From Ruminococcus sp. (GTDB lineage: Bacteria > Bacillota > Clostridia > Oscillospirales > Acutalibacteraceae), in assembly GCA_045133455.1 (NCBI GenBank), contig JBGUUJ010000035.1, forward strand, positions 2,550 to 66,549: DNA of 64,000 nucleotides, written 5' to 3'. The position numbers and the translations under genes are program-made. Under the pieces are notes generated by a model. It did not search any database and had not been told where the DNA came from. It saw nothing but the letters and a program-made list of their open reading frames with translations. Below, in pieces: positions 1,688-57,203 of the stretch (within the stretch, counting starts at the first letter, position 1; each line of letters opens with the position of its first letter).

Positions 1688-4600
1688 ATGGCATATACAA
1701 CTTCGCAGGCTGTAGAGGCCTTAAATGAATATATGGGCTGTGATGAAGCCTTAAAACAGTACATAGAAGGTACGAAAGAAAGAGGCTTTGTTCTGTCCTT
1801 GAAGACCGGAGAGCAAATCGTGATTTTCGTTTACCCTTTGGTGCATAAACAAGATAATACTAAGAATTACTTTGACACAAGAGATAGTGGTGCGTATGAG
1901 CGTGGAGTAGCATGGAGATATGCGTTAGAACACGGTCTTAAGTACTACTGCTTTGGGTTGAATAGTTCTGTTGATAAGTATGAAAACTATATCTTCAGTC
2001 TTGAGTGCGGTGAGGAAACAATTGAGAAAATTTCCGGAACTAAGAATGGACAGCGAAGTGGTCCGGGTAATCAAATAATTATTCCTAACAATTACACGCC
2101 TGCCCTGCCTTTCGATAGAATCGTTAATAAGTTAGGGATTTATATTGCGGTAATACACAAGGACAAAATCTATGATTATATCTCGATGTATGATAACAGA
2201 CCTTATCTGAAGACAAGCACTGATGAAGTTACACAGCAAAATGATGATGCCAATGAGTACGAAAAGGCTGCCAGATATTTGCAGTCCTATGTCTCTGAAA
2301 CTGGCTTGGACATTCCTACGAAAAAGGATGATCTGGAATCTATACTTACAGAATTTACATCCAAGTTTTCTCCGGAGATTTTGGCAGCGTTATCGGATGA
2401 TGAACTGTTGAATTACCTGTTCTATACTGTTGGCGAGAACCAGGACTCCCTTTGCTGTTGGCTTGAAATGAACAAGGAGTGTCGTCAGCATTTTGGTAGT
2501 ATTTCCGGTGGTTCTGCTTATAAATTCGGTCTGTTCCAGAAACAGAAAACTGGAGAATGGACAACGGGTAGTCCTCAGAAACCACAGGTACTTACGGAAG
2601 ATGAGGCTTTAGAACTGGGGCGTAGCATACGAGATGCGTTGGTCAAGGCTGCAGGTATTGTTCAGAATGCAACTCTCGACACCCTTGCTGATTATGAGCA
2701 GTTGGATACTACTCTTTGGAACGAAGTCGGCGAGCCGTACTGTAATTGGGGTTGGTTCCACAAGTACCTTGCGATGGTTTGCCCAGATAAGCTGAGTTGT
2801 TTCCATTCCTCTGATTGGCAGCGCCACATTCTCTATGCATTGAAAATCAAGCCGAGTGAAAAATACTTTACTCGTAGCGGTCAGTTGGCCATGATTTCCA
2901 ATTATGCAGGATGGTATTATGGTGAGTTCAAGGATGTACTGTTTGAACGCTTTGGTGGAGACATCATTCAGTTTGTAAGAGTCGGCACTTCCGATGATAC
3001 CCAGAATTATGCAGCAGAATGGAATCAGAAATCTGTTATAGGTATCGGTTGGCGAGATATCGGTTCTCTTGAGGATTATGCCGCAGGTGAAGGTCTTGAT
3101 AAGGGTGCAATCACGGAGGCATTGAAAGAAAAATTCGGATATGCCGAGAATGTTGCCTCCCGCAAGGCAGGAGAACTTATTCGTTTTTATAAAATGGACG
3201 CAAGCACTGTTGTCGTTGCAATGGACGGCGAAAGTCTGTTAGCTTTTGTTGATGGTATCGGAAATTACTTCTATGATTTGACATCTGCAATGGCAAATAT
3301 GAAGCCTGGAACATGGCATCGCAATTTTGCATCCGGTGAGCAGCTCCCTGTGAAATCCGAGGGTAAATTGACATCTTGTTATCCTCTCACCGATGAGGCA
3401 AACTTGATGTTCCTGTATGATAGATACTATTACGGTAGCGAAGAAATTATTGATGAAGTCGATGAAATCGAGTTTGACAATCCGGAAGAACGTAATAAGC
3501 GTAACTTCCGTGCTTGGATGGAAACACAGGTTAAGCCGGAGGGTGATTCCGATGCAGGACAGCCTTACACGGCAAATTCCATCAATCAGTATGTAAGCAA
3601 CATTTCCAACACTCCACTCCCTTCTCATGAAGGACACAGTGTATTCTACACGGATGCTGTGATTGAAGTGCAGGATTGCTTGGTTGTGTTAGAAGCATCT
3701 GATAAGAAAAATAATACCCAAAGAAGTGCTGTCAAGAAATACTTGATGTACTTGATGGCGTTACAGGAGGTCAATATGCCGCTGATTTACAATACAGATT
3801 TACCAACTAAATATGAGAGAAATCGCATTGTCTTCGGCGCACCTGGTACTGGTAAGAGTTTCAATTTGAAGAGAGACTGCGAGGCGTGTCTGAAGGACAC
3901 AGAAGGTTCTTATGAGCGTGTGACTTTCCATCCGGATTACACATATTCTCAGTTTGTTGGAACATATAAGCCTGTTTCTGACGGTACCGCTATTCGCTAT
4001 GAATTTGTTCCGGGGCCGTTCATGAGGGTGTATGTTGAGGCATTGAAGAGTGCGCGTTCTTTGAATCCACAGCCTCATATTTTGATAATTGAAGAAATCA
4101 ACAGAGCCAAGGTGGCTGCTGTTTTCGGTGACATATTCCAGTTGCTTGACCGCGACGAGGATGGCGTCAGCGAATACGAAATTCAGACTTCTGAAGATAT
4201 CAGAAAGTATCTGGCAGCAGAACTGAAGTGCGATATTGCTATGTGCAAGAAAATCAAGATTCCGAATAATATGTTCATTTGGGCAACAATGAACAGTGCT
4301 GACCAAGGTGTATTCCCTATGGACACTGCATTCAAGCGCCGTTGGAATTTTGAGTATCTTGGCATTAATGAGAATCAGGATAAAATCAAAGGGCGTGTAC
4401 CAGTTGGAACTGTAAATACCCAAGAGATTGAATGGAATGTTCTGAGACGTGCAATTAACGAGAAAATTGCCAAGGAGTACAAGGTAAACGAAGACAAGCT
4501 GATGGGTCCGTTCTTCATTTCCAAGCGTGTACTGAAAACCGTTAGCGAGGAAAATGACACCCTTGTTGACGCAGCACGTTTTGTAGAAGTATTCAAGAGC

Positions 4601-4774
4601 AAGGTTATCATGTATCTTTACGAAGATGCAGCAAAACAGCATAAGCATAAGCTGTTCTCCGGTTGCGAGGATACCACCAAGTATTCTGCCGTATGCGACA
4701 GCTTTGACGAAATCGGAATCCAGATCTTCGGAGAGGATTTTGAGGAGGTTTATTATAATCCGCAGAAGGGATGA
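1688..4774 (+). CDS. McrB-like GTPase/AAA+ restriction subunit with ~690-aa N-terminal extension (LlaJI R1-like)
   Basis: Walker A FGAPGTGKS (3833-3859), Walker B LIIEEINRA, McrB-type MNSADQG and AFKRRW motifs; RBS GGAGGA; starts 18 nt after MTase stop. Confidence 0.85.
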   Translation: MAYTTSQAVEALNEYMGCDEALKQYIEGTKERGFVLSLKTGEQIVIFVYPLVHKQDNTKNYFDTRDSGAYERGVAWRYALEHGLKYYCFGLNSSVDKYENYIFSLECGEETIEKISGTKNGQRSGPGNQIIIPNNYTPALPFDRIVNKLGIYIAVIHKDKIYDYISMYDNRPYLKTSTDEVTQQNDDANEYEKAARYLQSYVSETGLDIPTKKDDLESILTEFTSKFSPEILAALSDDELLNYLFYTVGENQDSLCCWLEMNKECRQHFGSISGGSAYKFGLFQKQKTGEWTTGSPQKPQVLTEDEALELGRSIRDALVKAAGIVQNATLDTLADYEQLDTTLWNEVGEPYCNWGWFHKYLAMVCPDKLSCFHSSDWQRHILYALKIKPSEKYFTRSGQLAMISNYAGWYYGEFKDVLFERFGGDIIQFVRVGTSDDTQNYAAEWNQKSVIGIGWRDIGSLEDYAAGEGLDKGAITEALKEKFGYAENVASRKAGELIRFYKMDASTVVVAMDGESLLAFVDGIGNYFYDLTSAMANMKPGTWHRNFASGEQLPVKSEGKLTSCYPLTDEANLMFLYDRYYYGSEEIIDEVDEIEFDNPEERNKRNFRAWMETQVKPEGDSDAGQPYTANSINQYVSNISNTPLPSHEGHSVFYTDAVIEVQDCLVVLEASDKKNNTQRSAVKKYLMYLMALQEVNMPLIYNTDLPTKYERNRIVFGAPGTGKSFNLKRDCEACLKDTEGSYERVTFHPDYTYSQFVGTYKPVSDGTAIRYEFVPGPFMRVYVEALKSARSLNPQPHILIIEEINRAKVAAVFGDIFQLLDRDEDGVSEYEIQTSEDIRKYLAAELKCDIAMCKKIKIPNNMFIWATMNSADQGVFPMDTAFKRRWNFEYLGINENQDKIKGRVPVGTVNTQEIEWNVLRRAINEKIAKEYKVNEDKLMGPFFISKRVLKTVSEENDTLVDAARFVEVFKSKVIMYLYEDAAKQHKHKLFSGCEDTTKYSAVCDSFDEIGIQIFGEDFEEVYYNPQKG

Positions 4775-4780
4775 TAGGAT

Positions 4781-6250
4781 ATGGAGATAAAGATTCGTTC
4801 TCGCTATGTCCGAGAACAGCAGCGTTACACTAAGAATCAGCTGCGTACTCTTTTCTCCTACGATGATGTAGGAGTAGAAAAATTCATAAAAAGCCTAAAG
4901 TCCTACGGTATTTTAAAGACCGTTGCAAACACTGCGGAGCAGAAAGAATTGACAGACCTTGTTGATGAAGATGTCCAGATGGTGGATGAAACTGCCGGAA
5001 ACGATGATTGCTATTATGTGTTTACATATGTTGGTGTCATTACTATCGGAAATCGTGTAATCAAGGTTTATCCGAAATATATTCTTTCTGAAAATGAACC
5101 GCTTGCAAGAATGAAGCAGGTTGTGAAAGTTCTTGAACGCTACAGCCATTCGGAGGAGCAAATCATAAATCTGTTTAATGGTGACGGAGATAACCGCAGT
5201 TTTAATATTCTTGCGGTTATCCTGTACCTTTTGAACGACTACTACGAGTACGGCGTTTATAACAACAGCGAGGATATTTTGGAAGTCAACGGCGAAGGCG
5301 ATATTCTTTGGAACAGAACCATCGATGACGGATTTGTTATTATCGAGGAAGGCCGCCCGTATTATACAGAACTGATTACTCGTAGGTCAGTAGAAGATGA
5401 TATGGACTATTTCAAGCGCCTGCATGAGTGCGTTCTTACGGAATGTTCCAAGCAGCTCCAAGATGCTGGACTAAAAGAATTGTTTGAAATCGATTCTGTT
5501 TCCTTAAGTGATGAAGCCTTGGAGGACTTTGGCGAAAAGGAATATATTCTTGAGCGAATCATGAAAGAGTTGAATGTCCAGTTCAACACGCATCGGCAGA
5601 TTTTGCTCAAAACACTGTACACCTACATTTCACAGGACAGAAAAATGCTTGAAGAAAATCAAGGCATTAGTATGTTTGGCACCACCGCATTTCATGCAGT
5701 TTGGGAAAAGGCTTGTGCAGCCGCATTCGGAAACAAACTGGATGTTGCGATTGGTCAGTTGCAAATGAAGGAGCCGTTGGCAGACGGATACAATAAGAAA
5801 ACCAAGCTGATAGATTTGGTTGAGAAGCCAAAATGGTGTGGAGAGGGCTTTGTTCACGAACCCAAGGATACCCTTATCCCCGACCTCATTACCATCAATG
5901 AGTACAGTGGGCAGGATTGGTTCATCATTTTCGATGCCAAGTATTATCTGATTCAGCTTGAAAAAGGTCGCACATTAAGGGGCAACCCTGGCGTTGGCGA
6001 TGTAGTGAAGCAGTATATGTATCAGTTGGCATATAAGAAATTCTTGGCAGACCACCATATTGCGGTTGTTAAGAACTGCTTTTTGATGCCGACCGAAGGA
6101 AACGAAATAATAAACAAAGGGAACGCCAAATTGGATATGCTTTCCGAATTAGGACTGGAGGATATCCAGATACGTTTGATTCCGGCTGATATGCTTTTCG
6201 ATTGTTACTTGAGGCGAAAGACAATAGCTATCGAAAAATTGGAGTTGTAG
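4781..6250 (+). CDS. McrC-like / LlaJI R2-like PD-(D/E)xK nuclease subunit
   Basis: Starts 6 nt after the McrB-like gene; IPDL(x20)FDAKYY resembles PD...(D/E)xK (DAK at 5933-5941); gene order M-M-McrB-like-McrC-like matches LlaJI organisation. Confidence 0.7.
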   Translation: MEIKIRSRYVREQQRYTKNQLRTLFSYDDVGVEKFIKSLKSYGILKTVANTAEQKELTDLVDEDVQMVDETAGNDDCYYVFTYVGVITIGNRVIKVYPKYILSENEPLARMKQVVKVLERYSHSEEQIINLFNGDGDNRSFNILAVILYLLNDYYEYGVYNNSEDILEVNGEGDILWNRTIDDGFVIIEEGRPYYTELITRRSVEDDMDYFKRLHECVLTECSKQLQDAGLKELFEIDSVSLSDEALEDFGEKEYILERIMKELNVQFNTHRQILLKTLYTYISQDRKMLEENQGISMFGTTAFHAVWEKACAAAFGNKLDVAIGQLQMKEPLADGYNKKTKLIDLVEKPKWCGEGFVHEPKDTLIPDLITINEYSGQDWFIIFDAKYYLIQLEKGRTLRGNPGVGDVVKQYMYQLAYKKFLADHHIAVVKNCFLMPTEGNEIINKGNAKLDMLSELGLEDIQIRLIPADMLFDCYLRRKTIAIEKLEL

Positions 6251-47077: not shown

Positions 47078-48619
47078 ATGAAACGGATAACAAAGATTGA
47101 GGCAGCCGATACCGGAGCGGTGCGAAAGCTGCGTGTGGCAGCATACGCCAGAGTTTCCACAGACTCCGAAGAACAGCTTATCAGCCTGGATGCCCAGAAG
47201 AACCATTACGAAGTTCTAATCCGTTCCCGCAGGGACTGGGAATACGCAGGACTGTACTACGATGAAGGCATCAGCGGAACCAAGATGGCGAAGCGAGACG
47301 GTCTGCTTTCCATGTTTGCAGACTGCGAGAGAGGGCTGATCGACTATATCATCGTCAAATCCATCAGCCGATTTTCCCGAAACACGGTGGAGAGCATTGA
47401 GACTGTCCGCAGGCTCTGCAGCATGGGCATTTACATCCTGTTTGAGAAGGAGAATATCGATACCGGAAAGATGGAGGGCGAACTGCTGCTCTCCATTCTG
47501 TCAAGTCTGGCAGAAAGCGAATCCCGCTCCATTTCCGAAAACGAGACCTGGAGCATTCAGAAACGCTTCCGCAACGGCACCTACAAAATCGCCTATCCTC
47601 CCTACGGTTACGATTACACAGATGGAGAGATGGTGGTGAACCAGACGCAGAGCGAAATTGTGAAGTGGATCTTCGCAGAGGTTCTTTCCGGAAGCAGTAC
47701 AACGCAGATTGCCAAGGCACTGAATGCCAGGGGCATATCCACCAAGCGGGGCGGCAGATGGACAGGTCATACCATCAACGGCATGATCAAGAATGAGAAG
47801 TACACCGGGGATGTTATCTTCCAGAAGACCTACTCCGATGATACCTTTACACGCCGCAGGAACAACGGTGAAAGAGACCAGTTCTTCGTACAGGGACACC
47901 ACGAAGCCATCATCAGCCATGAGGATTTTGATGCCGCCAACGACATGATCGCAAGGAATGCTGCCGAGAAAGGCATCTGCGCTGACAGCCGGAAGTACCA
48001 AAACCGATACTGCTTTTCGGGAAAAATCATTTGCGGTAACTGCGGTGCAGTGTGGAAACGCAGGAAGATATCGGGTTATTTCGGCTATGCCTGCACCACG
48101 CACCTTGAAAATAAAGATGTCTGCGGTATGAAATCCATTCGGGAAGACAGCATCATGGCGGCATTTGCCACGATGATGAACAAGCTGATATTCGCAAGAT
48201 ACAAGGTCCTTCTTCCCTTCTCAAACGCACTGAAGACCGCTGAAAAGGCAGAGTGCCTGGATGAGTTTACGGCGTTGGAAGAAGGGCTTGAGAAGAACCT
48301 TCAGAAAAGACAGCAGATCACACAGCTTTTCACGAAGGGCTACCTTGACCCTGCGGTCTACGCACAGCAGAACGATGAGCTTCTGAGTGCGAGTGCAAGG
48401 CTTACCGCTGAGAAGGACGCCATCATCGCAAAGATCAGTGGTGGCAGCAGGCAGAAGGAAGCACTGGAAGACATCCTTCACTACACTTCAGGAGCTTCCA
48501 TGATGACAGAATTTGACGAAGACCTTTTCATAAGATTTGTGAACAGGGTCATCGTTTACAGCAGAACGGAGATTGGATTCGACATGAAATGCGGACCCGT
48601 CTTCCGGGAAAGGATTTGA
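47078..48619 (+). CDS. large serine recombinase
   Basis: [14 protein letters not shown] catalytic Ser region; recombinase domain; Zn ribbon CGNCG...C. Confidence 0.9.
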   Translation: MKRITKIEAADTGAVRKLRVAAYARVSTDSEEQLISLDAQKNHYEVLIRSRRDWEYAGLYYDEGISGTKMAKRDGLLSMFADCERGLIDYIIVKSISRFSRNTVESIETVRRLCSMGIYILFEKENIDTGKMEGELLLSILSSLAESESRSISENETWSIQKRFRNGTYKIAYPPYGYDYTDGEMVVNQTQSEIVKWIFAEVLSGSSTTQIAKALNARGISTKRGGRWTGHTINGMIKNEKYTGDVIFQKTYSDDTFTRRRNNGERDQFFVQGHHEAIISHEDFDAANDMIARNAAEKGICADSRKYQNRYCFSGKIICGNCGAVWKRRKISGYFGYACTTHLENKDVCGMKSIREDSIMAAFATMMNKLIFARYKVLLPFSNALKTAEKAECLDEFTALEEGLEKNLQKRQQITQLFTKGYLDPAVYAQQNDELLSASARLTAEKDAIIAKISGGSRQKEALEDILHYTSGASMMTEFDEDLFIRFVNRVIVYSRTEIGFDMKCGPVFRERI

Positions 48620-48621
48620 TT

Positions 48622-49035
48622 ATGAAGCACACACCATACGGATACGACATTGTGGGCAGTGCGGCAGTCATAAACGAAGAACAGGCTGCCAACCTGCGAA
48701 AGCTGTGTGAGAACTACCTTTCCGGCATGTCTTTTGTACAGGCGGCAAAGGATATAGGACTGGAGATGAAGCACAGCGGTGTCAAGAGACTGATGCAGAA
48801 CCCACGCTATCTTGGTGACGATTTCTATCCGGCAATACTTACTCCAGAGATTGCCCAGGCAGTGGAAGCCGAAAGGCTGAGAAGAGATGCCCTTTACAAG
48901 GGTACAAGATACAAGAAGGAAGCTGTAACCACGGTGATTCCTACAAGGTTTTCCATGAAGCGCACCGCTCTGAAATACCAAGATCCAATCAAGCAGGCAG
49001 AATACGCCTACAGTCAGATAAAGGAGGCGAAGTAA
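48622..49035 (+). CDS. recombinase-domain-only protein (no resolvase catalytic domain)
   Basis: YGYDIVGSAAVINEEQAANLRKLCENYLSGMSF resembles the recombinase domain of large serine recombinases; lacks the N-terminal Ser motif. Confidence 0.55.
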   Translation: MKHTPYGYDIVGSAAVINEEQAANLRKLCENYLSGMSFVQAAKDIGLEMKHSGVKRLMQNPRYLGDDFYPAILTPEIAQAVEAERLRRDALYKGTRYKKEAVTTVIPTRFSMKRTALKYQDPIKQAEYAYSQIKEAK

Positions 49036-50610: not shown

Positions 50611-50633
50611 TTTGTCTTCCTTCTTTGTAGTTA

Positions 50634-50662
50634 TTGACATATTTCGGATAAACGAATATAAT
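50634..50662 (+). promoter_or_regulatory. consensus sigmaA promoter of the HEPN-like cassette
   Basis: TTGACA, 17-nt spacer, TATAAT; spacer shares GATAAACGA with the promoter at 57071-57099. Confidence 0.7.
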
Positions 50663-50714
50663 ATATTTGGGAAACTACTATTTCAGCGGTAGCAACTTAT
50701 CTGGGGGTTTCAGT

Positions 50715-53700
50715 ATGGATACTTTGAACTGGAAATGTATTTTTAAACATAATCAGCAAATCTATTTTACACATAACTCCTTGGCTAAAGGCGATATTTC
50801 CGATGGAGTTAATATCGTTAGGGAATATACCAAGGAAAATGTGACCGGGTGTACATATAATGGCGAATTGATTTGGCTCAGCATTATGGGCAGTAATGAA
50901 CTCATATGTATTGATTCTCAAGAAAATGAAAACTATTTGCCTATTTTATCTTACGATACTGTTCAAATTATGAATATGGTAACAGGTCAAAAGGGAATCA
51001 TGGTATTAAAAGGTGTGTGTGGTGACGAGTCTGATTTCTTCCTGTTTGATGGAATAAAAGGCTGCGTGCTCTGCAAACTCCCAATTCACAAAGAATATCT
51101 TGACTTTGCAATTGAAAGTGATGGTAAAGGATTTCTTTTGTGTGAGGAACCCATTGCTGTCCCTGGGCGTTATAGTGACGAAGTTGATGATACAGAAGTG
51201 TTGTTTTTTGCCGAAGTAACTTGGGGTACCGAAAGTTTGCACGCTAATATTGAAAGATCGATTTCGCTGTATATCGACAATAATTATGACTGCTCTGATA
51301 AACTATCTTACGGTGATAATTTGAGATTTCCGTTGTTTGACCAATACCTTTGGGAGTGGTTAGAACAGAAATCGTTCTCTTCGAGCGGAAAATACGTAAT
51401 TTATTATTCGAAAGATATCAAGGGAATCATTATTGGCAATCCGGTTGGAGGCAAAATACATAGGATTTTTTCTGTGCCTGAGGAAATTGCGGATTGTAAT
51501 AGTTGTTATTACTATAACGATGTTTCCGAGGAATTACTTATTATTACTAAATCCAATGAAATCAGAAGGTATGCGCTTTGTTGCGATTCCGAAGAAGCGA
51601 TTGAGAAATTAAATGTTGCATACGACGATGCTTATAACAAAAAAAGAAGTTTGTCTCCTAAGCATAACCCTGGAGACATGACATTTATAAACATATTGTA
51701 TCGTGCCATTGGCAGTTGTACATTCAAACCACTGGGACTTTCAGCCGCAGAAGTAGCGAATCGGCATGAAAGTATTCATCATATATCACTCACAGTTAAA
51801 ACACCTATATCCGGAAAGGTACTAATTGAAAAGGACCGGCAAGATCTTGGCTACATAGACTGTGATAACGAAGAATTCGAGAAGACCTTTGATTTTGATA
51901 CTGAAGATAGTACATTTGGCATTGTATTTCTTGCAAGTTCTATTGAAAAGGTTGTTCACTTCAATTCTTCTGTTAATGGTGGGAATCTTAAAGTTGATAT
52001 GCAAAACCATTTGCAATCCGAAGAGATTATACAATGTTGCAGCAGAATTGTCGCAAGAAGAAAACTTCAAACATATCCAACTGATATATACGCTATATAT
52101 CAATTAGGTTGGGTCGGAACAGAGGAAGATTTGAACTTCCTGTTAGGAATACTCGAAGATCATTTTCTAGAGTCTACCTTGTCTTATGGAAATGATGGAA
52201 ATCGAGTTTGGACTGCCGCGAGGACGGTAGCAGATTTGTCAACCAAATATAAAAGAAACGATGCTATTCCCCTTTTGAAACGGATTGCAAAAACAGCAAA
52301 AAATGCGGGGATGTTAAAAATAGCTGAACTTGTAGATAATTGCCGGGTAGATTTGGAAACACACAGAGATTTCGTTTCTTATAAATACCGTACCGATATT
52401 CTTATAAGAACACATTTGGTTGTTCAAGTCTACTTCAACACTAAGGACAACTGGGTTGCTGAGATTGATGGATCAGTTGGCTTCGAGAAAATGATAGATT
52501 GGTGTTATGTTAGATCGAACAAAGAACGAAACATTTTGATTGTTGAATCTGTTTATGGGAATCAGACTTTTGATATTGATATCAAGAACAATAATCCTTA
52601 TTATCGTCAGGTAATTGATGTTGATCCGCCGGTGTTTTCCAGAGAGTTAGCTCAAGAAGTGCTTAAATCCCGCGGAGATAGAATTTTGGTTATTCCTGAA
52701 GGAATAGAGACTTTGGCTGATGATTTTGCTTTATTGTTTGATGAAAAGGATGAGAAGTATCATTTTTACGAGATTGATATTCCTTCTTCGGTCAGGGTTA
52801 TTGAACCATTGTTTATAACAAAGGATCCTGGCGATGCTTGGGCATGTGGGAAAGACTTTGACTGTTTTGATGAGATAACCGTTGCAGCTGGCAATGAGTA
52901 TTTTTGCTCTGTAGATGGTGTGTTGTTTACAAAGGATATGAAAAAACTACTTTGCTATCCTTGTGGAAAGCAAGCAGAGACATATATTGTTCCAGAAGGG
53001 GTTGAAGTTATAGGTGCCTTTGCTTTCCAATGCAATCAGTTTTTAGAGAAGGTGAATTTACCGTCTACTATCAAGATTATTGAATGGAAGGCATTCAGCT
53101 TTTGTGAGAAGCTGTGTGAAATTTTTCTCCCAGATGGGCTTGAAACTATAGATGAAGATGCGTTTGAGTTCTGCAATATAAAACATCTAACGCTTCCAAA
53201 GAGTTTGAAGAAGATTCATTGGCTGAATTTGTCATCTATAGGTTCCGGCATATTAAACTTAGAGATTCTCGACAGCAATACTGAGATTGATATGTCGGGG
53301 TATTATGCAAGTGGCGAGGAGCCATATACGCCACCGTTATTCCTAATAAGGGGAAAAAATCCAGTTTTCGAGAAATACGCCAGGAGGCACAAAAGAAATT
53401 TTGCCCACGATTATTATGTTGATGAAACAGGAATTGTATGGGCAGCGGATGGAAACGAAATTATTGAATTTCCTATGCATTGGTCAAGTGATGTATACAA
53501 GATTCCCGAGAATGTAACCAGTATTCATAGGTGGGCATTTAACCAATCAGGCGTAAAACATATTATTATGCAGAGAGAACTGAAAACAGTCGGCAACACA
53601 TCAGGAAATGATTTCAGTCGAATTGCTTCTAAAACTGATTTTAGATATGACCCAGACTTTATTGTTATAGAGGAGAGCGTGAATGAGGATTTAAGACATA

Positions 53701-55055
53701 CGCAAACAGAAATGGACCTTGATACTGTTTATTCCGGAAAGAGTGGAAAAGTATATACGACAATCGAGCTACTAGGGCATGGAAGCGACGGAAGCGTATA
53801 TCGAATTCGGGAAGACTCTCGTTTTGTTGCAATGATTTATTCCGAGCATAGACGAACGGATGCTCAACATAAAACCCTCCTAGCGATGGTTGAAAACCCG
53901 TTGCCTATTGCTAAAATGATCGAACAACAAATCGAGTGGCCTGTTGATATTCTCTATGTTAATGAGGTTTTCTGTGGGTATATTATGCCGTGGATATACA
54001 ATGAAGATGCAGCTGGGGCTTTAAGTTCCTCACAACCGGAGTTGGTTGCCTCTTCCAAATTAGATATTAATCTTACGGATGCTGAACAAATGATACTTGA
54101 TGAACTCCGTACTCTTAAAGAGATGGTAGCGTCAGACCATCAAATCGCAGTGGACACTAATATAACTGTAAAATCGTTAGCCCGTTTTGTTGAAACTGAT
54201 TTACAGACTTGGATTTCAACAAATCGCCCAAGGATCGATGATGAAGCTCTGATTGAGCAATTTGCTCATAGAGCAACGGATTATATAAATGCGCATGTAA
54301 AAGGTTCAAATCAGGAGGTTCAAGAAGAAGAAAAACATCTTCGAAATGTTTTTGGTAATACTTGGAGCAGACTTCTGCCTTCAACGCAGTCTAGCTTGAT
54401 CTCGGCTAGTGTTCTTTGGAATTTATGTGCGAATATTTCGGTAGCAGGTTTTGACTACAGCGGCATTATTATAGCAGCAACATCGGCATTGGAGTCGGAA
54501 TTAAAAAGAGTGTTTTATACAGACTTCCAGACATATATGCTTTCTAAGTATGGTAATCCCCAAACACAGTCTGCGGAAAGAACATATGCTTTTTGGCCTG
54601 AACGATTGCTGTCAAAAACAAAAGCCGAATATGATAACGAAATGAGCAGAGGTTCGGCTTCGTTACCGCAGCTAGCGGATAGTTTTACCATGGGAACACT
54701 GCCGTACATGTTTAAGGATGACAAAAATCCGAATCAGCAAGGTGTTCTCCGAAAAAGAATGAGGGAATATTTGCAAACGATTGTTCTGGAAGATGTCCTA
54801 AAAAAATATACTGATAATTCTTATTCTGATCCGCTCAAAGTATTTAACAATTATTCGGATGATTACAATTTTGTGAGACAATGTGAAAGCATTCGAACTC
54901 TTTATAGAAATCCGGCTGGTCATGTAGATGTGCTGTCACGCGAAAGTGCAGAAGAATGTTATACAAGAGTAGTCGGAGTTGGAAAAGTTGATGCCTTCCG
55001 GTTTGCTCATGAGGTTCAAGGTCTTATTATGACACTTTATGGATATCTGAAATGA
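50715..55055 (+). CDS. 1446-aa multidomain protein: unassigned N-terminus, BspA-type LRRs, truncated kinase-like N-lobe, C-terminal Rx4H (HEPN-like) module
   Basis: LRR_5-like repeats 52686-53575 (YIVPEGVEVIGAFAFQCNQFLEKVNLPSTIKIIEWKAFSFCEKL); LGHGSDGSVY 53772-53801; RNPAGH 54906-54923; ATG 50715 preferred over the ORF-track start. Confidence 0.7.
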   Translation: MDTLNWKCIFKHNQQIYFTHNSLAKGDISDGVNIVREYTKENVTGCTYNGELIWLSIMGSNELICIDSQENENYLPILSYDTVQIMNMVTGQKGIMVLKGVCGDESDFFLFDGIKGCVLCKLPIHKEYLDFAIESDGKGFLLCEEPIAVPGRYSDEVDDTEVLFFAEVTWGTESLHANIERSISLYIDNNYDCSDKLSYGDNLRFPLFDQYLWEWLEQKSFSSSGKYVIYYSKDIKGIIIGNPVGGKIHRIFSVPEEIADCNSCYYYNDVSEELLIITKSNEIRRYALCCDSEEAIEKLNVAYDDAYNKKRSLSPKHNPGDMTFINILYRAIGSCTFKPLGLSAAEVANRHESIHHISLTVKTPISGKVLIEKDRQDLGYIDCDNEEFEKTFDFDTEDSTFGIVFLASSIEKVVHFNSSVNGGNLKVDMQNHLQSEEIIQCCSRIVARRKLQTYPTDIYAIYQLGWVGTEEDLNFLLGILEDHFLESTLSYGNDGNRVWTAARTVADLSTKYKRNDAIPLLKRIAKTAKNAGMLKIAELVDNCRVDLETHRDFVSYKYRTDILIRTHLVVQVYFNTKDNWVAEIDGSVGFEKMIDWCYVRSNKERNILIVESVYGNQTFDIDIKNNNPYYRQVIDVDPPVFSRELAQEVLKSRGDRILVIPEGIETLADDFALLFDEKDEKYHFYEIDIPSSVRVIEPLFITKDPGDAWACGKDFDCFDEITVAAGNEYFCSVDGVLFTKDMKKLLCYPCGKQAETYIVPEGVEVIGAFAFQCNQFLEKVNLPSTIKIIEWKAFSFCEKLCEIFLPDGLETIDEDAFEFCNIKHLTLPKSLKKIHWLNLSSIGSGILNLEILDSNTEIDMSGYYASGEEPYTPPLFLIRGKNPVFEKYARRHKRNFAHDYYVDETGIVWAADGNEIIEFPMHWSSDVYKIPENVTSIHRWAFNQSGVKHIIMQRELKTVGNTSGNDFSRIASKTDFRYDPDFIVIEESVNEDLRHTQTEMDLDTVYSGKSGKVYTTIELLGHGSDGSVYRIREDSRFVAMIYSEHRRTDAQHKTLLAMVENPLPIAKMIEQQIEWPVDILYVNEVFCGYIMPWIYNEDAAGALSSSQPELVASSKLDINLTDAEQMILDELRTLKEMVASDHQIAVDTNITVKSLARFVETDLQTWISTNRPRIDDEALIEQFAHRATDYINAHVKGSNQEVQEEEKHLRNVFGNTWSRLLPSTQSSLISASVLWNLCANISVAGFDYSGIIIAATSALESELKRVFYTDFQTYMLSKYGNPQTQSAERTYAFWPERLLSKTKAEYDNEMSRGSASLPQLADSFTMGTLPYMFKDDKNPNQQGVLRKRMREYLQTIVLEDVLKKYTDNSYSDPLKVFNNYSDDYNFVRQCESIRTLYRNPAGHVDVLSRESAEECYTRVVGVGKVDAFRFAHEVQGLIMTLYGYLK

Positions 55056-55074
55056 TTATTTGGTGGAGGCGATT

Positions 55075-55275
55075 ATGAGAGATTTCATGACGGTGCAAGA
55101 AGCGGCAACTCGATGGGGTGTAACAGAACGTCAAGTTCAAGTGCTGTGTAAGAGCGAAAAAATAGAAGGCGTATCACGCGTGGGAAGAAATTGGATTATT
55201 CCGATTGACGCAGAAAAGCCCAAAGATGGACGAATTAAATCAGGAAGATATCGTAACATAGACCGCGAACGTTGA
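55075..55275 (+). CDS. small excisionase/MerR-superfamily HTH DNA-binding protein
   Basis: MTVQEAATRWGVTERQVQVLCKSEKIEGVSRVGRNWIIPIDAEKP; RBS GGTGGAGG. Confidence 0.7.
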   Translation: MRDFMTVQEAATRWGVTERQVQVLCKSEKIEGVSRVGRNWIIPIDAEKPKDGRIKSGRYRNIDRER

Positions 55276-55445
55276 TCGTAACAGTGCCCTAGCGATAAAT
55301 ACTTGTATTACTGGGGCACTACACAAATTGAGTATAATATTTTTCTTAGCCAGCGAATGCTTCCGAGTGTGAAATGCCGAAGATTAAGTGTAAAAATAAT
55401 CTGATTGAAGTGCTGCTTTGAGCTTGAAATTTGGAGGAAGATAAA

Positions 55446-56996
55446 TTGCTTTATATACTTTATGGCGGACATACATCTATGGGCAAATCCGCAAGAGATT
55501 TTTTTCGATCCAACGGGGTGAAAATTGTAAAAAAATATCACTACTGTGATTCAACACCAGGACTAACAACTCTGTATGAACCTAGAAACTTTGTTGACGA
55601 GATTACCTTTCTTCGTAATACAGATACATTATTTAGGTATTCACTTGGAAATATACAAGTGGGTTTTAGTCAGGATGATATAATCCAAGCGGTAACCGGA
55701 AATGGAGATTATTTACTAACACTTTCAACCGCCAGGACTGATATTATTAGAAATCTTAAAGAAACTTATAGGAAAAAAGTTGTTGTGATTTTTTCTTATA
55801 CAGATGATGCGACCTTAAGAGAGTATTTTGGTTCTATGGAAATAACGCAGGCAGAGATAGAATTGCGTTGTGCTATTGGAAAGACGGTCAAAGAGTGTTT
55901 TCGCCAAAACTCAGATTTATTTGATTATACAATAATGTACGGAGGAGAGAACAGTATCTTTGATGATGAAAATATTGTGAGTCAGTGCAGGGTACTCTAC
56001 GCTAAGTCTCTAGCTCAAAAGGAAGATAATCAGTCTGATTTGTTAAGTTATGTCATTGAAATCCGCAACACAGTTCGAGAAATGGATATTAATCTGAAAC
56101 GTCTTACTCGGTTTGTGGAAGATGATCTTCAAGAGCACTTAAAAAGGAAAAAGCGTGAGTATGAGTCGGCTTATGGGTTAGCTGATAATGAACCCGCCAT
56201 AGCTTCGTTAGCAGACAGCATTACCAGTTATATAGGCAATCATATCCTACGAACAGATTTTAATGATTTGTTAAGAGAAGAAGAATTGAATTTGAACCGC
56301 TTATTTGGAGAAATATGGGATAAACTATTGCCGAGTACAAAAACTTCCTTGATTTCTGCGAATATCCTTTGGAAAAACTGTCCAAATCAAAATGCCATTT
56401 TTGATTATTCGGGTGTCTGCTTAACAGTTACATCAGCATTGGAAAATGAACTTAAATACTGGTTTTTCACTAAATATCAAGAATACTTAATCCAAAAATA
56501 TGGATCTCCTTCATTGTTGGGGAATGTATATGAAGTTTGGCCGGAGGAACTACTCGACACAAAGTACCATATCTATAAAAATGCGGAAGTCAAGCCAATT
56601 GTCAACTGCGGAGACTTATTTACTTTGGGAAAATTGCCTTTCCTATTTTATAATGAAAAGACTAGAGTAACGCGGGAACGGATGAAAGAGTACCTCGACA
56701 CTATTTTCAAAGAAACATATATGCATCAAAGAGGTGGAACCATCGGAGCCATTGATTGGATTGATTTTCAAAGGCAAAATGGAAAAATATCTTCGATAAG
56801 GGATCCTCATAGTTTTATTAGTGAATGTGAAAACATTAGAAATGTTTACCGAAATCCTGCGGCACACTCGGGTATAGTTGGTCGAAATGATGCTGAGGTT
56901 TGCTACCAGAGAGTAATTGGTCGGGTTGATGCCTACCGACATTGTTCCGAAGTTCAGGGGCTGATAATGACTCTATATAATTATTTGAAAGTATGA
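55446..56996 (+). CDS. P-loop (guanylate-kinase-like) N-terminal domain fused to the same Rx4H (HEPN-like) module
   Basis: Walker A GHTSMGKS 55467-55490; FDYTIMYGG; RNPAAH 56850-56867; C-terminal ~300 aa paralogous to 54171-55052; TTG 55446 lies 8 nt after GGAGG (alternative start 55431). Confidence 0.7.
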   Translation: MLYILYGGHTSMGKSARDFFRSNGVKIVKKYHYCDSTPGLTTLYEPRNFVDEITFLRNTDTLFRYSLGNIQVGFSQDDIIQAVTGNGDYLLTLSTARTDIIRNLKETYRKKVVVIFSYTDDATLREYFGSMEITQAEIELRCAIGKTVKECFRQNSDLFDYTIMYGGENSIFDDENIVSQCRVLYAKSLAQKEDNQSDLLSYVIEIRNTVREMDINLKRLTRFVEDDLQEHLKRKKREYESAYGLADNEPAIASLADSITSYIGNHILRTDFNDLLREEELNLNRLFGEIWDKLLPSTKTSLISANILWKNCPNQNAIFDYSGVCLTVTSALENELKYWFFTKYQEYLIQKYGSPSLLGNVYEVWPEELLDTKYHIYKNAEVKPIVNCGDLFTLGKLPFLFYNEKTRVTRERMKEYLDTIFKETYMHQRGGTIGAIDWIDFQRQNGKISSIRDPHSFISECENIRNVYRNPAAHSGIVGRNDAEVCYQRVIGRVDAYRHCSEVQGLIMTLYNYLKV

Positions 56997-57070
56997 TTTG
57001 CGTTTTGGAAAAATGCTGTTACTGAAACTTTCTTTAGCCTAATCATCTTTTCGCTTCATCCACACGCTGA

Positions 57071-57099
57071 TTGACAAAAACCTGATAAACGAGTATAAT
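57071..57099 (+). promoter_or_regulatory. consensus sigmaA promoter upstream of the XRE gene
   Basis: TTGACA, 17-nt spacer, TATAAT; same GATAAACGA spacer block as 50634-50662. Confidence 0.7.
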
Positions 57100-57203
57100 A
57101 ATTAAACTACACTATTGGTTGAAACTCTGATGATATTTGATAGGTGGAATAGACCGAGGGGGGCTTTTTATAGTCTCCAGTCAATATCAAGGAGGAAAGT
57201 GCT

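Follow-up and report, generated by a model that had tools for sequence, protein, structure and literature searches.

The active sites of HEPN ribonucleases (RNases) form across a dimer interface. RAZR, in which a zinc finger is joined to a DUF4145 HEPN domain, and HepS are single-protein anti-phage systems with N-terminal sensing and a C-terminal HEPN RNase; they are off by default and switch on when they oligomerise on a structural protein of the phage (PMC13017515; review PMC13434031). RnlA/LsoA (RNase LS), known from E. coli as a type II toxin-antitoxin (TA) and anti-T4 system, has an all-alpha HEPN domain at the C-terminus of a multidomain protein. In PrrC and RloC, an NTPase-type domain is followed by a C-terminal HEPN-like RNase that stays latent until phage attack. 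The Avs/STAND proteins, which are large and cytosolic, combine repeat sensors with exchangeable effectors such as TIR or HEPN. RNase L and Ire1 consist of a sensor (repeats or a lumenal domain), a kinase or pseudokinase, and a KEN-type HEPN RNase that needs dimerisation. Here we describe a three-gene cassette of approximately 6.4 kb in a 64,000-nucleotide (nt) stretch of Ruminococcus sp. contig JBGUUJ010000035.1 (the whole stretch is called the window below), which we think probably encodes a sensor-gated, HEPN-RNase-based abortive-infection or defence system. As a suicide system, it would most likely be directed against phage or mobile elements.

The cassette comprises, in order on the forward strand to which all coordinates refer, a gene for a giant protein of 1446 amino acids (aa; 50715..55055), a gene for a 66-aa excisionase/MerR-like helix-turn-helix (HTH) protein (55075..55275), and a gene for a 516-aa partner protein (55446..56996); all three open reading frames (ORFs) were present where an earlier note on this DNA had placed them. 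The giant would combine a sensor scaffold with a HEPN effector, the small protein is a candidate regulator of the cassette, and the partner joins a pseudo-guanylate-kinase domain to a HEPN module. The mechanical ORF of the giant runs from TTG 50667; ATG 50715 was preferred, with GGAGG located 8 nt 5' of it and the start aligned across all homologous loci. Its nearest database relative (P0028) is 99% identical and likewise has 1446 aa. The HTH gene starts 19 nt past the stop codon of the giant gene, and the partner, which is identical to a 516-aa database protein (P0001), starts at TTG 55446 with its own GGAGG 9 nt before. The GC content was 0.37–0.40 in the cassette, 0.49–0.53 upstream, and 0.44–0.49 downstream. 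The cassette is horizontally acquired accessory cargo on an integrative mobile element of gut Clostridia. Against PADLOC-DB v2.0.0 (2023), neither large protein gave a match at E<=1 and the HTH protein matched only mad1 (E=0.023); across Pfam, NCBIfam, PADLOC, and PHROGs, only leucine-rich repeats (LRRs) and the HTH were recognised, with nothing else in the two large proteins. In keeping with the earlier note, which could place the architecture in no named system, no model in PADLOC (2023), NCBIfam, or Pfam names either large protein or the system.

RAZR and HepS, the template for our proposal, are single small proteins of Enterobacteria, whereas the LRR scaffold of the cassette has 1446 aa and is accompanied by guanylate-kinase (GK) or pseudo-GK domains, an HTH protein, and a second HEPN paralogue. 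The C-terminal module of the two large proteins shares with RnlA/LsoA its position and a catalytic R-x4-H preceded, one helix or more before, by an acidic or basic pair. However, the cassette lacks an antitoxin of the RnlB/LsoB type, its N-terminal domains bear no relation to those of RnlA/LsoA, and the module stands apart by a 60–80-aa insert (W-P-E...F-T-x-G) and, past the His, an invariant Cys. The part order of RNase L and Ire1 recurs in sister giants (LRR-GK-HEPN) and in the partner (pseudo-GK-HEPN); this is an analogy only, as the fold here is that of a P-loop guanylate kinase, not a protein kinase, and there is no sequence relation to KEN. As in Avs/STAND, a few members of the module family carry STAND-type ATPase domains, but the giant itself has no detected NTPase, its effector is C-terminal, and it is accompanied by a partner HEPN protein and an HTH protein. 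PrrC and RloC differ in that their N-terminal domain is an ABC ATPase and in their linkage to type I restriction-modification (R-M); no PADLOC or Pfam match to them was found here. The kind of system, HEPN abortive infection with a fused sensor, is thus already known, while the new elements are a HEPN family without a Pfam, PADLOC, or NCBIfam model, a non-STAND LRR scaffold with TIR/HEPN exchange, a pairing of GK-HEPN and pseudo-GK-HEPN proteins, and the three-gene organisation.

The C-terminal modules of the giant (aa 1150–1446; 54162..55052) and the partner (aa 216–515; 56091..56990) are paralogous, in agreement with the earlier note (BLASTP, 38% identity over 344 aa, E=4e-63). Both have intact catalytic-type residues (E...R-N-x-A-x-H), namely E1260 of SALESELK (54483–54506) and R1398 and H1403 of RNPAGH (54906–54923) in the giant, and E333 of SALENELK (56433–56456) and R469 and H474 of RNPAAH (56850–56867) in the partner. 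An exhaustive search of 1.84 billion representative proteins with a profile of the module, in which clusters were defined at 50% identity, retrieved 1,195 clusters at E<=1e-3, of which 187 reached E<=1e-30, and the module was nearly always at the extreme C-terminus. The motifs conserved in the family are the Glu of SALExELK, R-N-x-A-x-H, and a Cys 12 residues past the His: among 147 full-length modules, E333, R469, H474, and C486 (partner numbering) were invariant (147/147), and N470 was found in 146/147. The R/H pair on which the earlier note had relied is therefore kept in every homologue aligned. The invariant Cys (C486 in the partner, C1415 in the giant) is unusual among HEPN domains.

To 51 module members that were mutually <45% identical, we applied a Pfam scan at a permissive threshold. 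The families matched by more than one of them were HEPN_RiboL-PSP (seven members, best E=9.9e-7), Hypoth_Ymh (four), Cas_Csm6_HEPN (two), and RnlA-toxin_DBD (two); HEPN_RnaseLS and HEPN_Swt1 were matched by single members, and every non-HEPN match was also a singleton. RiboL-PSP, Ymh, DUF4145, and Swt1 have been listed as HEPN families (Anantharaman et al. 2013, PMC3710099). By sequence profile, RiboL-PSP-HEPN (PF18735; 7/51) and Ymh (PF09509; 4/51) are the nearest described domains and have the R-N-x-x-A-H type motif in common with the module, but they span approximately 100–120 aa as against approximately 300 aa, and the module has its own conserved N-terminal helices and no L-PSP endoribonuclease fusion. 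In a PADLOC scan, the family gave weak matches to CARF_HEPN, Cas13a, and Csm6. AlphaFold2 (AF2) models of the module were all-alpha and confident (pLDDT 84 and 83; pTM 0.81 with the former), and its top-probability Foldseek neighbours, all at non-significant scores, were RnlA and LsoA in the PDB and an 'RNaseLS-like protein' in BFVD. Sequence searches of the PDB with the partner and with the C-terminal module profile A2 returned nothing useful. Given the invariant R-x4-H and the HEPN families of Pfam matched transitively by its members, the HEPN reading put forward in the earlier note holds, and we regard the shared module as very probably a HEPN-superfamily domain without a Pfam model of its own.

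Among 124 representatives, the domains found with the module were Sel1 (74), LRR_5 (6), guanylate kinase (2), many TPRs, and one receiver domain, together with the STAND-type ATPase domains AAA_16, NB-ARC, and nSTAND6 (one or two each). To judge from these fusions, the module behaves as a C-terminal effector on varied repeat or NTPase front ends. That DUF4145-like HEPN domains of Firmicutes can be fused to Sel1, and that AbiU2 can have Sel1 genes nearby, is already on record (Anantharaman et al. 2013, PMC3710099). The idea that the module is a divergent kinase C-lobe completing an N-lobe-like segment of the giant was rejected, since fusions of the module to GK, Sel1, LRR, and transmembrane regions occur equally in the absence of an N-lobe.

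Some individual members of the family deserve mention. P0208 (514 aa) has two HEPN-type domains, a near-threshold DUF4145/Swt1-like domain (aa 84–128) and the module (aa 255–500), and this tandem arrangement is consistent with the pairing requirement of HEPN domains. The motif of its N-terminal domain, IRTYRNHAAH, is almost the same as the IRxxYRNPAAH of the module; hhalign of the 147-sequence module profile against that DUF4145-like domain aligned the YRNxAAH motif alone (probability 41%, E=2.8e-4), which is suggestive though not conclusive, and a homologue search with the N-terminus of P0208 as the query, intended for a DUF4145 profile, returned none. The PADLOC model PDLC02907, labelled 'TPR', matched three HEPN-module cores of alignment A8 that are devoid of TPR sequence (best E=9.3e-6); it may include a related C-terminal HEPN domain that belongs to a catalogued or candidate system. 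Five proteins (P0022, P0094, P0101, P0108, and P0109) have an extra stretch of approximately 90 aa C-terminal of the module with the pattern LRGxIxG...VKLxRWDENxxKxNAEx; an S1/OB RNA-binding fold, suggested by eye for this type of extension, was dropped for want of a Pfam match.

In the giant, the family-defining N-terminal domain (aa 1–345; 50715..51749) is the part common to all architectural variants, with 71 invariant columns in alignment A7, and is conserved among TIR-, GK-HEPN-, and HEPN-type relatives. The BspA-type LRRs noted earlier (aa ~658–954; 52686..53575) are well supported: LRR_5 (PF13306) matched with E=6.7e-20 and 71.7 bits against a gathering cutoff of 27.7 (best stretch aa 756–835), and the crystal structures of BspA-type LRR proteins 4cp6 and 4fs7 in the PDB matched with E down to 2e-24. 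The HEAT-like stretch had no match in Pfam, the only database consulted for it. A linker follows the repeats (aa ~985–1120; 53667..54074), which had been taken for a truncated protein-kinase N-lobe. By eye, it shows a plausible GxGxxGxV...VAxI pattern, and its sole database signal was a non-significant match to positions 1–70, the N-lobe part, of the APH profile (PF01636, E=0.2); no kinase was matched in a phmmer search of the PDB, nor Pkinase in the whole-protein Pfam scan, and the kinase assignment was not confirmed. The position of the linker is that of a guanylate kinase (PF00625) in the sister proteins P0030–P0043. Searches of the giant against Pfam, NCBIfam, and PADLOC revealed neither a STAND domain nor any other type of NTPase. 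Its N-terminus (MDTLNWKCIFKHNQ...), read by eye without a predictor, shows no signal peptide, and the giant is presumed to be cytosolic.

The homologues of the giant have the first ~345 residues in common, and usually also the next ~640 with the LRRs, while their C-termini differ. The window protein has LRRs, a linker of approximately 130 aa, and the HEPN module. P0030–P0043 and P0050 have LRRs, a Pfam-positive guanylate kinase, and HEPN, and P0051 has the N-terminal domain, GK, and HEPN without LRRs. In P0044–49, the LRRs are followed by TIR_2; P0052–57 consist of the N-terminal domain, a helical region, and TIR_2 without LRRs; and P0058 has a C-terminus that looks TIR-like by eye. An effector slot filled by TIR or HEPN in turn is a hallmark of immune sensor-effector proteins, and the pattern seen in these sequences would support such a role here. 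The N-terminal scaffold (N-domain, helical region, and LRRs) accordingly reads as a reusable platform, on which TIR takes the place of HEPN in relatives.

The N-terminal domain of the partner (aa 1–190; 55446..56015) has a guanylate-kinase fold, as judged from an AF2 model (pLDDT 83) whose input alignment included true-GK homologues: the top 50 Foldseek matches in the PDB were all guanylate kinases (E=1.5e-7, TM 0.68, target TM 0.57–0.72). It had no match to the Pfam GK model (PF00625), and hhalign against true GK domains gave a probability of 0.13. The P-loop is degenerate in the family. The window protein has the Walker-A-like GHTSMGKS, and the Lys is replaced by Y or N in 6/12 orthologues; in relatives whose GK domain matches the Pfam model, inspection showed GKG or GR[TG] at the P-loop. 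The P-loops of the GK-like domains are crippled (GKG, GR[TG], or G[YN]x), and the GMP-site motif TTRxxRxGE is retained. Because the Walker A Lys is not conserved and the Pfam GK model is not matched, the domain was treated as a pseudo-GK. Of the earlier description, a P-loop protein with a guanylate-kinase-like layout stands, but not the nucleotide switch; from sequence and model, the GK-like domains are read as pseudo-kinases that may serve ligand binding or dimerisation and not as a catalytic nucleotide switch.

Synteny was assessed by running custom hidden Markov models over all fetched loci. The 66-aa HTH gene came no more than ~20 nt after every HEPN-type giant, and did so in five or more different neighbourhoods; a second HEPN-module gene was found near all HEPN-type giants except that of locus L015. 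This second gene was of the pseudo-GK type in the window and in L006-8, L019, L021, and L023, and encoded a Sel1-type protein of ~1,000 aa in L024/25, L022, L035, and L033/34 (convergent in L033/34). The giants of these trio loci were down to 59–68% identical to that of the window, and their neighbourhoods differed, some being without serine recombinases. TIR-type giants (L005 and L031/32) had neither the HTH gene nor a second HEPN gene, nor the cassette promoter. In L009/10, a pseudo-GK-HEPN protein is paired with a GK-HEPN protein and the giant is absent. The hosts were gut Clostridia (Faecousia and Lachnospiraceae metagenome-assembled genomes), and the loci came from human, pig, and Hadza gut metagenomes.

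The cassette promoter (50634..50662) is, as had been noted, an exact sigma-70 consensus, TTGACA-17-TATAAT (12/12); just two such perfect matches occur in the window, where 0.01 would be expected by chance. Its spacer contains an operator-like imperfect palindrome, TTCGGATAAACGAA (50643–50656). The -35/spacer/-10 block is near-invariant 5' of all HEPN-type giant genes, down to relatives that are 45–68% identical in protein (L015:2858–2886, L033:6627–6655, and L035:3585–3613), and the flanking DNA diverges. The 17-nt spacer carries TTCGG[A/T]TAAACGAA, an imperfect TTCG-N6-CGAA palindrome. That promoter and spacer are kept while their surroundings diverge argues for an operator, and the palindrome is likely to be one, possibly for the 66-aa HTH protein. 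This protein matched HTH_17 (PF12728; E=5e-7, 30.3 bits against a gathering cutoff of 27) and the excisionase family phrog_2655 (E=1.2e-11), in line with the excisionase/MerR-like assignment made earlier, and it scored 21.2 against TIGR01764, under the 28.8 cutoff of that model. Directly after the HTH stop codon lies an inverted repeat (55285–55321; AGTGCCC...GGGGCACT), and a TATAAT (55333–55338) lies inside the 170-nt gap ahead of the partner gene; the former could be an attenuator or terminator, and the latter an internal promoter for the partner.

We propose that the scaffold would recognise an invader-derived protein or state, and that recognition would lead to oligomerisation. Since HEPN sites are dimeric, the giant and the partner would each contribute a HEPN domain to one composite active site. 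The assembled RNase would then cut cellular or invader RNA and bring about growth arrest. The GK or pseudo-GK domain ahead of the HEPN module would act as a dimerisation or guanine-nucleotide-binding regulator of assembly and not as a kinase, and the HTH protein would repress the strong promoter via the TTCG-N6-CGAA element in its spacer. Activation by assembly is proposed on account of the dimeric HEPN sites together with the precedents of RAZR and HepS. The heteromeric HEPN arrangement, first suggested in the earlier note, fits the presence of a second HEPN gene with HEPN-type giants and its absence with TIR-type giants.

A more specific idea, which we hold only tentatively and consider rather doubtful, is that the cassette might reproduce in bacteria, with different parts, the design of RNase L and Ire1, with a cytosolic LRR sensor and a heteromeric HEPN pair whose assembly would be governed by GK-derived pseudo-enzymes reading guanine-nucleotide status or a nucleotide signal, the same scaffold being alternatively wired to a TIR NADase. 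If so, a new and widespread HEPN family would be an immune effector in Firmicutes. More generally, should the cassette be a defence system, it would add a large HEPN family (~1,200 clusters) that annotation by Pfam, PADLOC, and NCBIfam has missed and whose members come mainly from gut Clostridia, a group with little-explored defence systems, and the TIR/HEPN swap on a non-STAND LRR scaffold would constitute a natural experiment in sensor-effector coupling. The pairing of GK or pseudo-GK domains with HEPN, an echo of the kinase/pseudokinase control of RNase L and Ire1, would then represent a new regulatory principle for bacterial HEPN nucleases, and the compact, conserved promoter-operator with its HTH protein would be directly testable. 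Alignments A2 and A8 provide a concrete profile with which module proteins can be annotated.

Several observations weigh against the cassette being a defence system that acts through a gated RNase. The two modules of the window have no direct match to any Pfam HEPN model, the link being transitive via family members, and the Foldseek matches of the module were no better than E ~1 and TM ~0.25. The N-terminal domain of the giant had no sequence match in Pfam or the PDB, also when profile A7 was used. A search for related loci with alignment A6 yielded 3 genome loci and 12 metagenome loci, and no relative on viral contigs. The PADLOC catalogue does not contain the module family, the HTH protein could alternatively be an excisionase of the element, and RNase activity, toxicity, and phage protection are properties that we infer. 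In addition, pseudo-GK-HEPN proteins are solitary in L001-4, L014, and L017, and the HEPN-type giant P0050 (L015) has the HTH gene without a second HEPN gene. Co-occurrence of the trio, for which the earlier note had asked, was found in several different neighbourhoods, but it is not obligatory, and from the solitary partners and the partnerless giant we take the heteromer to be a recurrent option.

These last cases also fit the view that the giant and the partner are autonomous, single-gene HEPN homodimers, that the HTH protein is the excisionase or regulator of the element, and that the three became neighbours through accessory-gene accumulation beside recombinases. It would agree with this view that TIR-type giants occur solo, that the best match of the HTH protein is an excisionase PHROG, and that single-gene systems such as RAZR and HepS are numerous among HEPN defence proteins. 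Chance accumulation accounts poorly, however, for an HTH gene after every HEPN-type giant, including those of the recombinase-free loci L033-35, and after none of the TIR-type giants, or for a second HEPN gene in all HEPN-giant contexts but one despite its differing N-terminal domain (pseudo-GK or Sel1). We consider autonomous genes an unlikely, though serious, explanation, and continue to favour a sensor-gated defence cassette.

The genomic context bears on a further alternative. Upstream of the cassette are a DUF2800/PD-(D/E)XK gene, genes for an Enc34-type ssDNA-binding protein and a family A polymerase, and two large serine recombinase genes; downstream are HTH_3, SprT-like, and OmpA-like genes. 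Sister loci run on into coupling-protein genes of type IV secretion systems, which, together with the adjacent recombinases, indicates that an integrative or conjugative element carries the cassette as cargo, at the end where its recombinases lie. The earlier placement in a defence island is replaced by this one, beside integrative-element recombinases and not in a classical chromosomal defence island. The constant location on or beside such element backbones would suit an addiction or stabilisation (TA-like) module, in which HEPN toxins are neutralised or repressed by the HTH protein or the partner and which maintains the element instead of acting against phage. HEPN toxins are common in TA systems, for example in RnlA/RnlB and HEPN-MNT (PMC3710099), and tight autoregulation is suggested by the strong promoter and the operator-like element in it. 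However, the giant, with its 1446 aa, its LRRs, and its large conserved N-terminal domain, far exceeds a TA toxin in complexity, and loci L033-35 are without obvious backbone genes of an element. One TIR-type relative adjoins DUF2397, DUF2398, SbcC, and DUF3323+DUF2399 genes, which we take to be a Wadjet type II/III system; such neighbours and the exchange of TIR on one scaffold point to immune sensing, and an addiction module is in our estimation improbable.

Exported polymorphic toxins or surface proteins, with a C-terminal HEPN or TIR domain acting on competitor cells, would match a conserved N-terminal scaffold with variable C-terminal toxin-type domains, and surface proteins often contain LRR_5 or Sel1 repeats. 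By eye and without a predictor, however, neither the giant nor the Sel1-type members inspected show a signal peptide or an LXG, WXG, Rhs, or other trafficking domain, the next gene encodes an HTH protein and no immunity-type protein, and the partner has a cytosolic-enzyme fold; lacking visible export or immunity features, this reading was rejected as very improbable. Equally hard to credit is a HEPN-like fold that serves nucleotide or RNA binding or regulation and is no nuclease, with a regulatory, non-defence role for the cassette: some HEPN families are indeed non-catalytic (PMC3710099, Table 1) and the window proteins lack a direct HEPN model match, but the non-catalytic families have lost Rx4-6H (PMC3710099), whereas R, N, H, and the upstream E are kept here in 146–147 of 147 modules and the module sits where relatives have a TIR effector.

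The second perfect promoter of the window (57071..57099) lies just past the cassette, whose downstream edge it marks, and ahead of backbone genes of the HTH_3/SprT-like kind. Both promoters lie in 31-mers (50633–50663 and 57070–57100; repeat D2) that are 81% identical, 6,437 nt apart, and flank the cassette. With a promoter and three genes bracketed by a duplicated promoter, the arrangement looks like an insertion before backbone genes; it suggests that the cassette was inserted with, or beside, a duplicated backbone promoter ahead of the HTH_3/SprT-like genes. The same two-promoter arrangement was found in L006-8 and L021.

Other genes around the cassette and its relatives were also of note. 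The 'R-M operon' of the earlier note includes a 1028-aa ORF (1688–4774) with a long N-terminal extension and a McrB-type GTPase domain (aa 709–888; PDB 6ut3 and 6hz4, E ~1e-13), and on the basis of this domain the operon has the look of type IV (McrBC-like) restriction; the neighbouring 489-aa ORF (4781–6250) had no sequence match in the PDB. The module protein P0023 shares an operon with a protein showing only faint nSTAND3/TPR matches. Approximately 2.4 kb past the cassette in L006 (16905–19947), and also in L007 and L008, a gene for an AAA_2/AAA_5 ATPase (437 aa) is followed by one for a fusion of ThiF (E1-like) and Prok-JAB (571 aa), a pair reminiscent of ubiquitin-like conjugation defence modules and absent at the corresponding position of the window. 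Between the two large serine recombinase genes of the window, and overlapping the end of the first, lies a 148-aa ORF (48589–49035) without a Pfam match, which has a 137-aa counterpart in L006-8.

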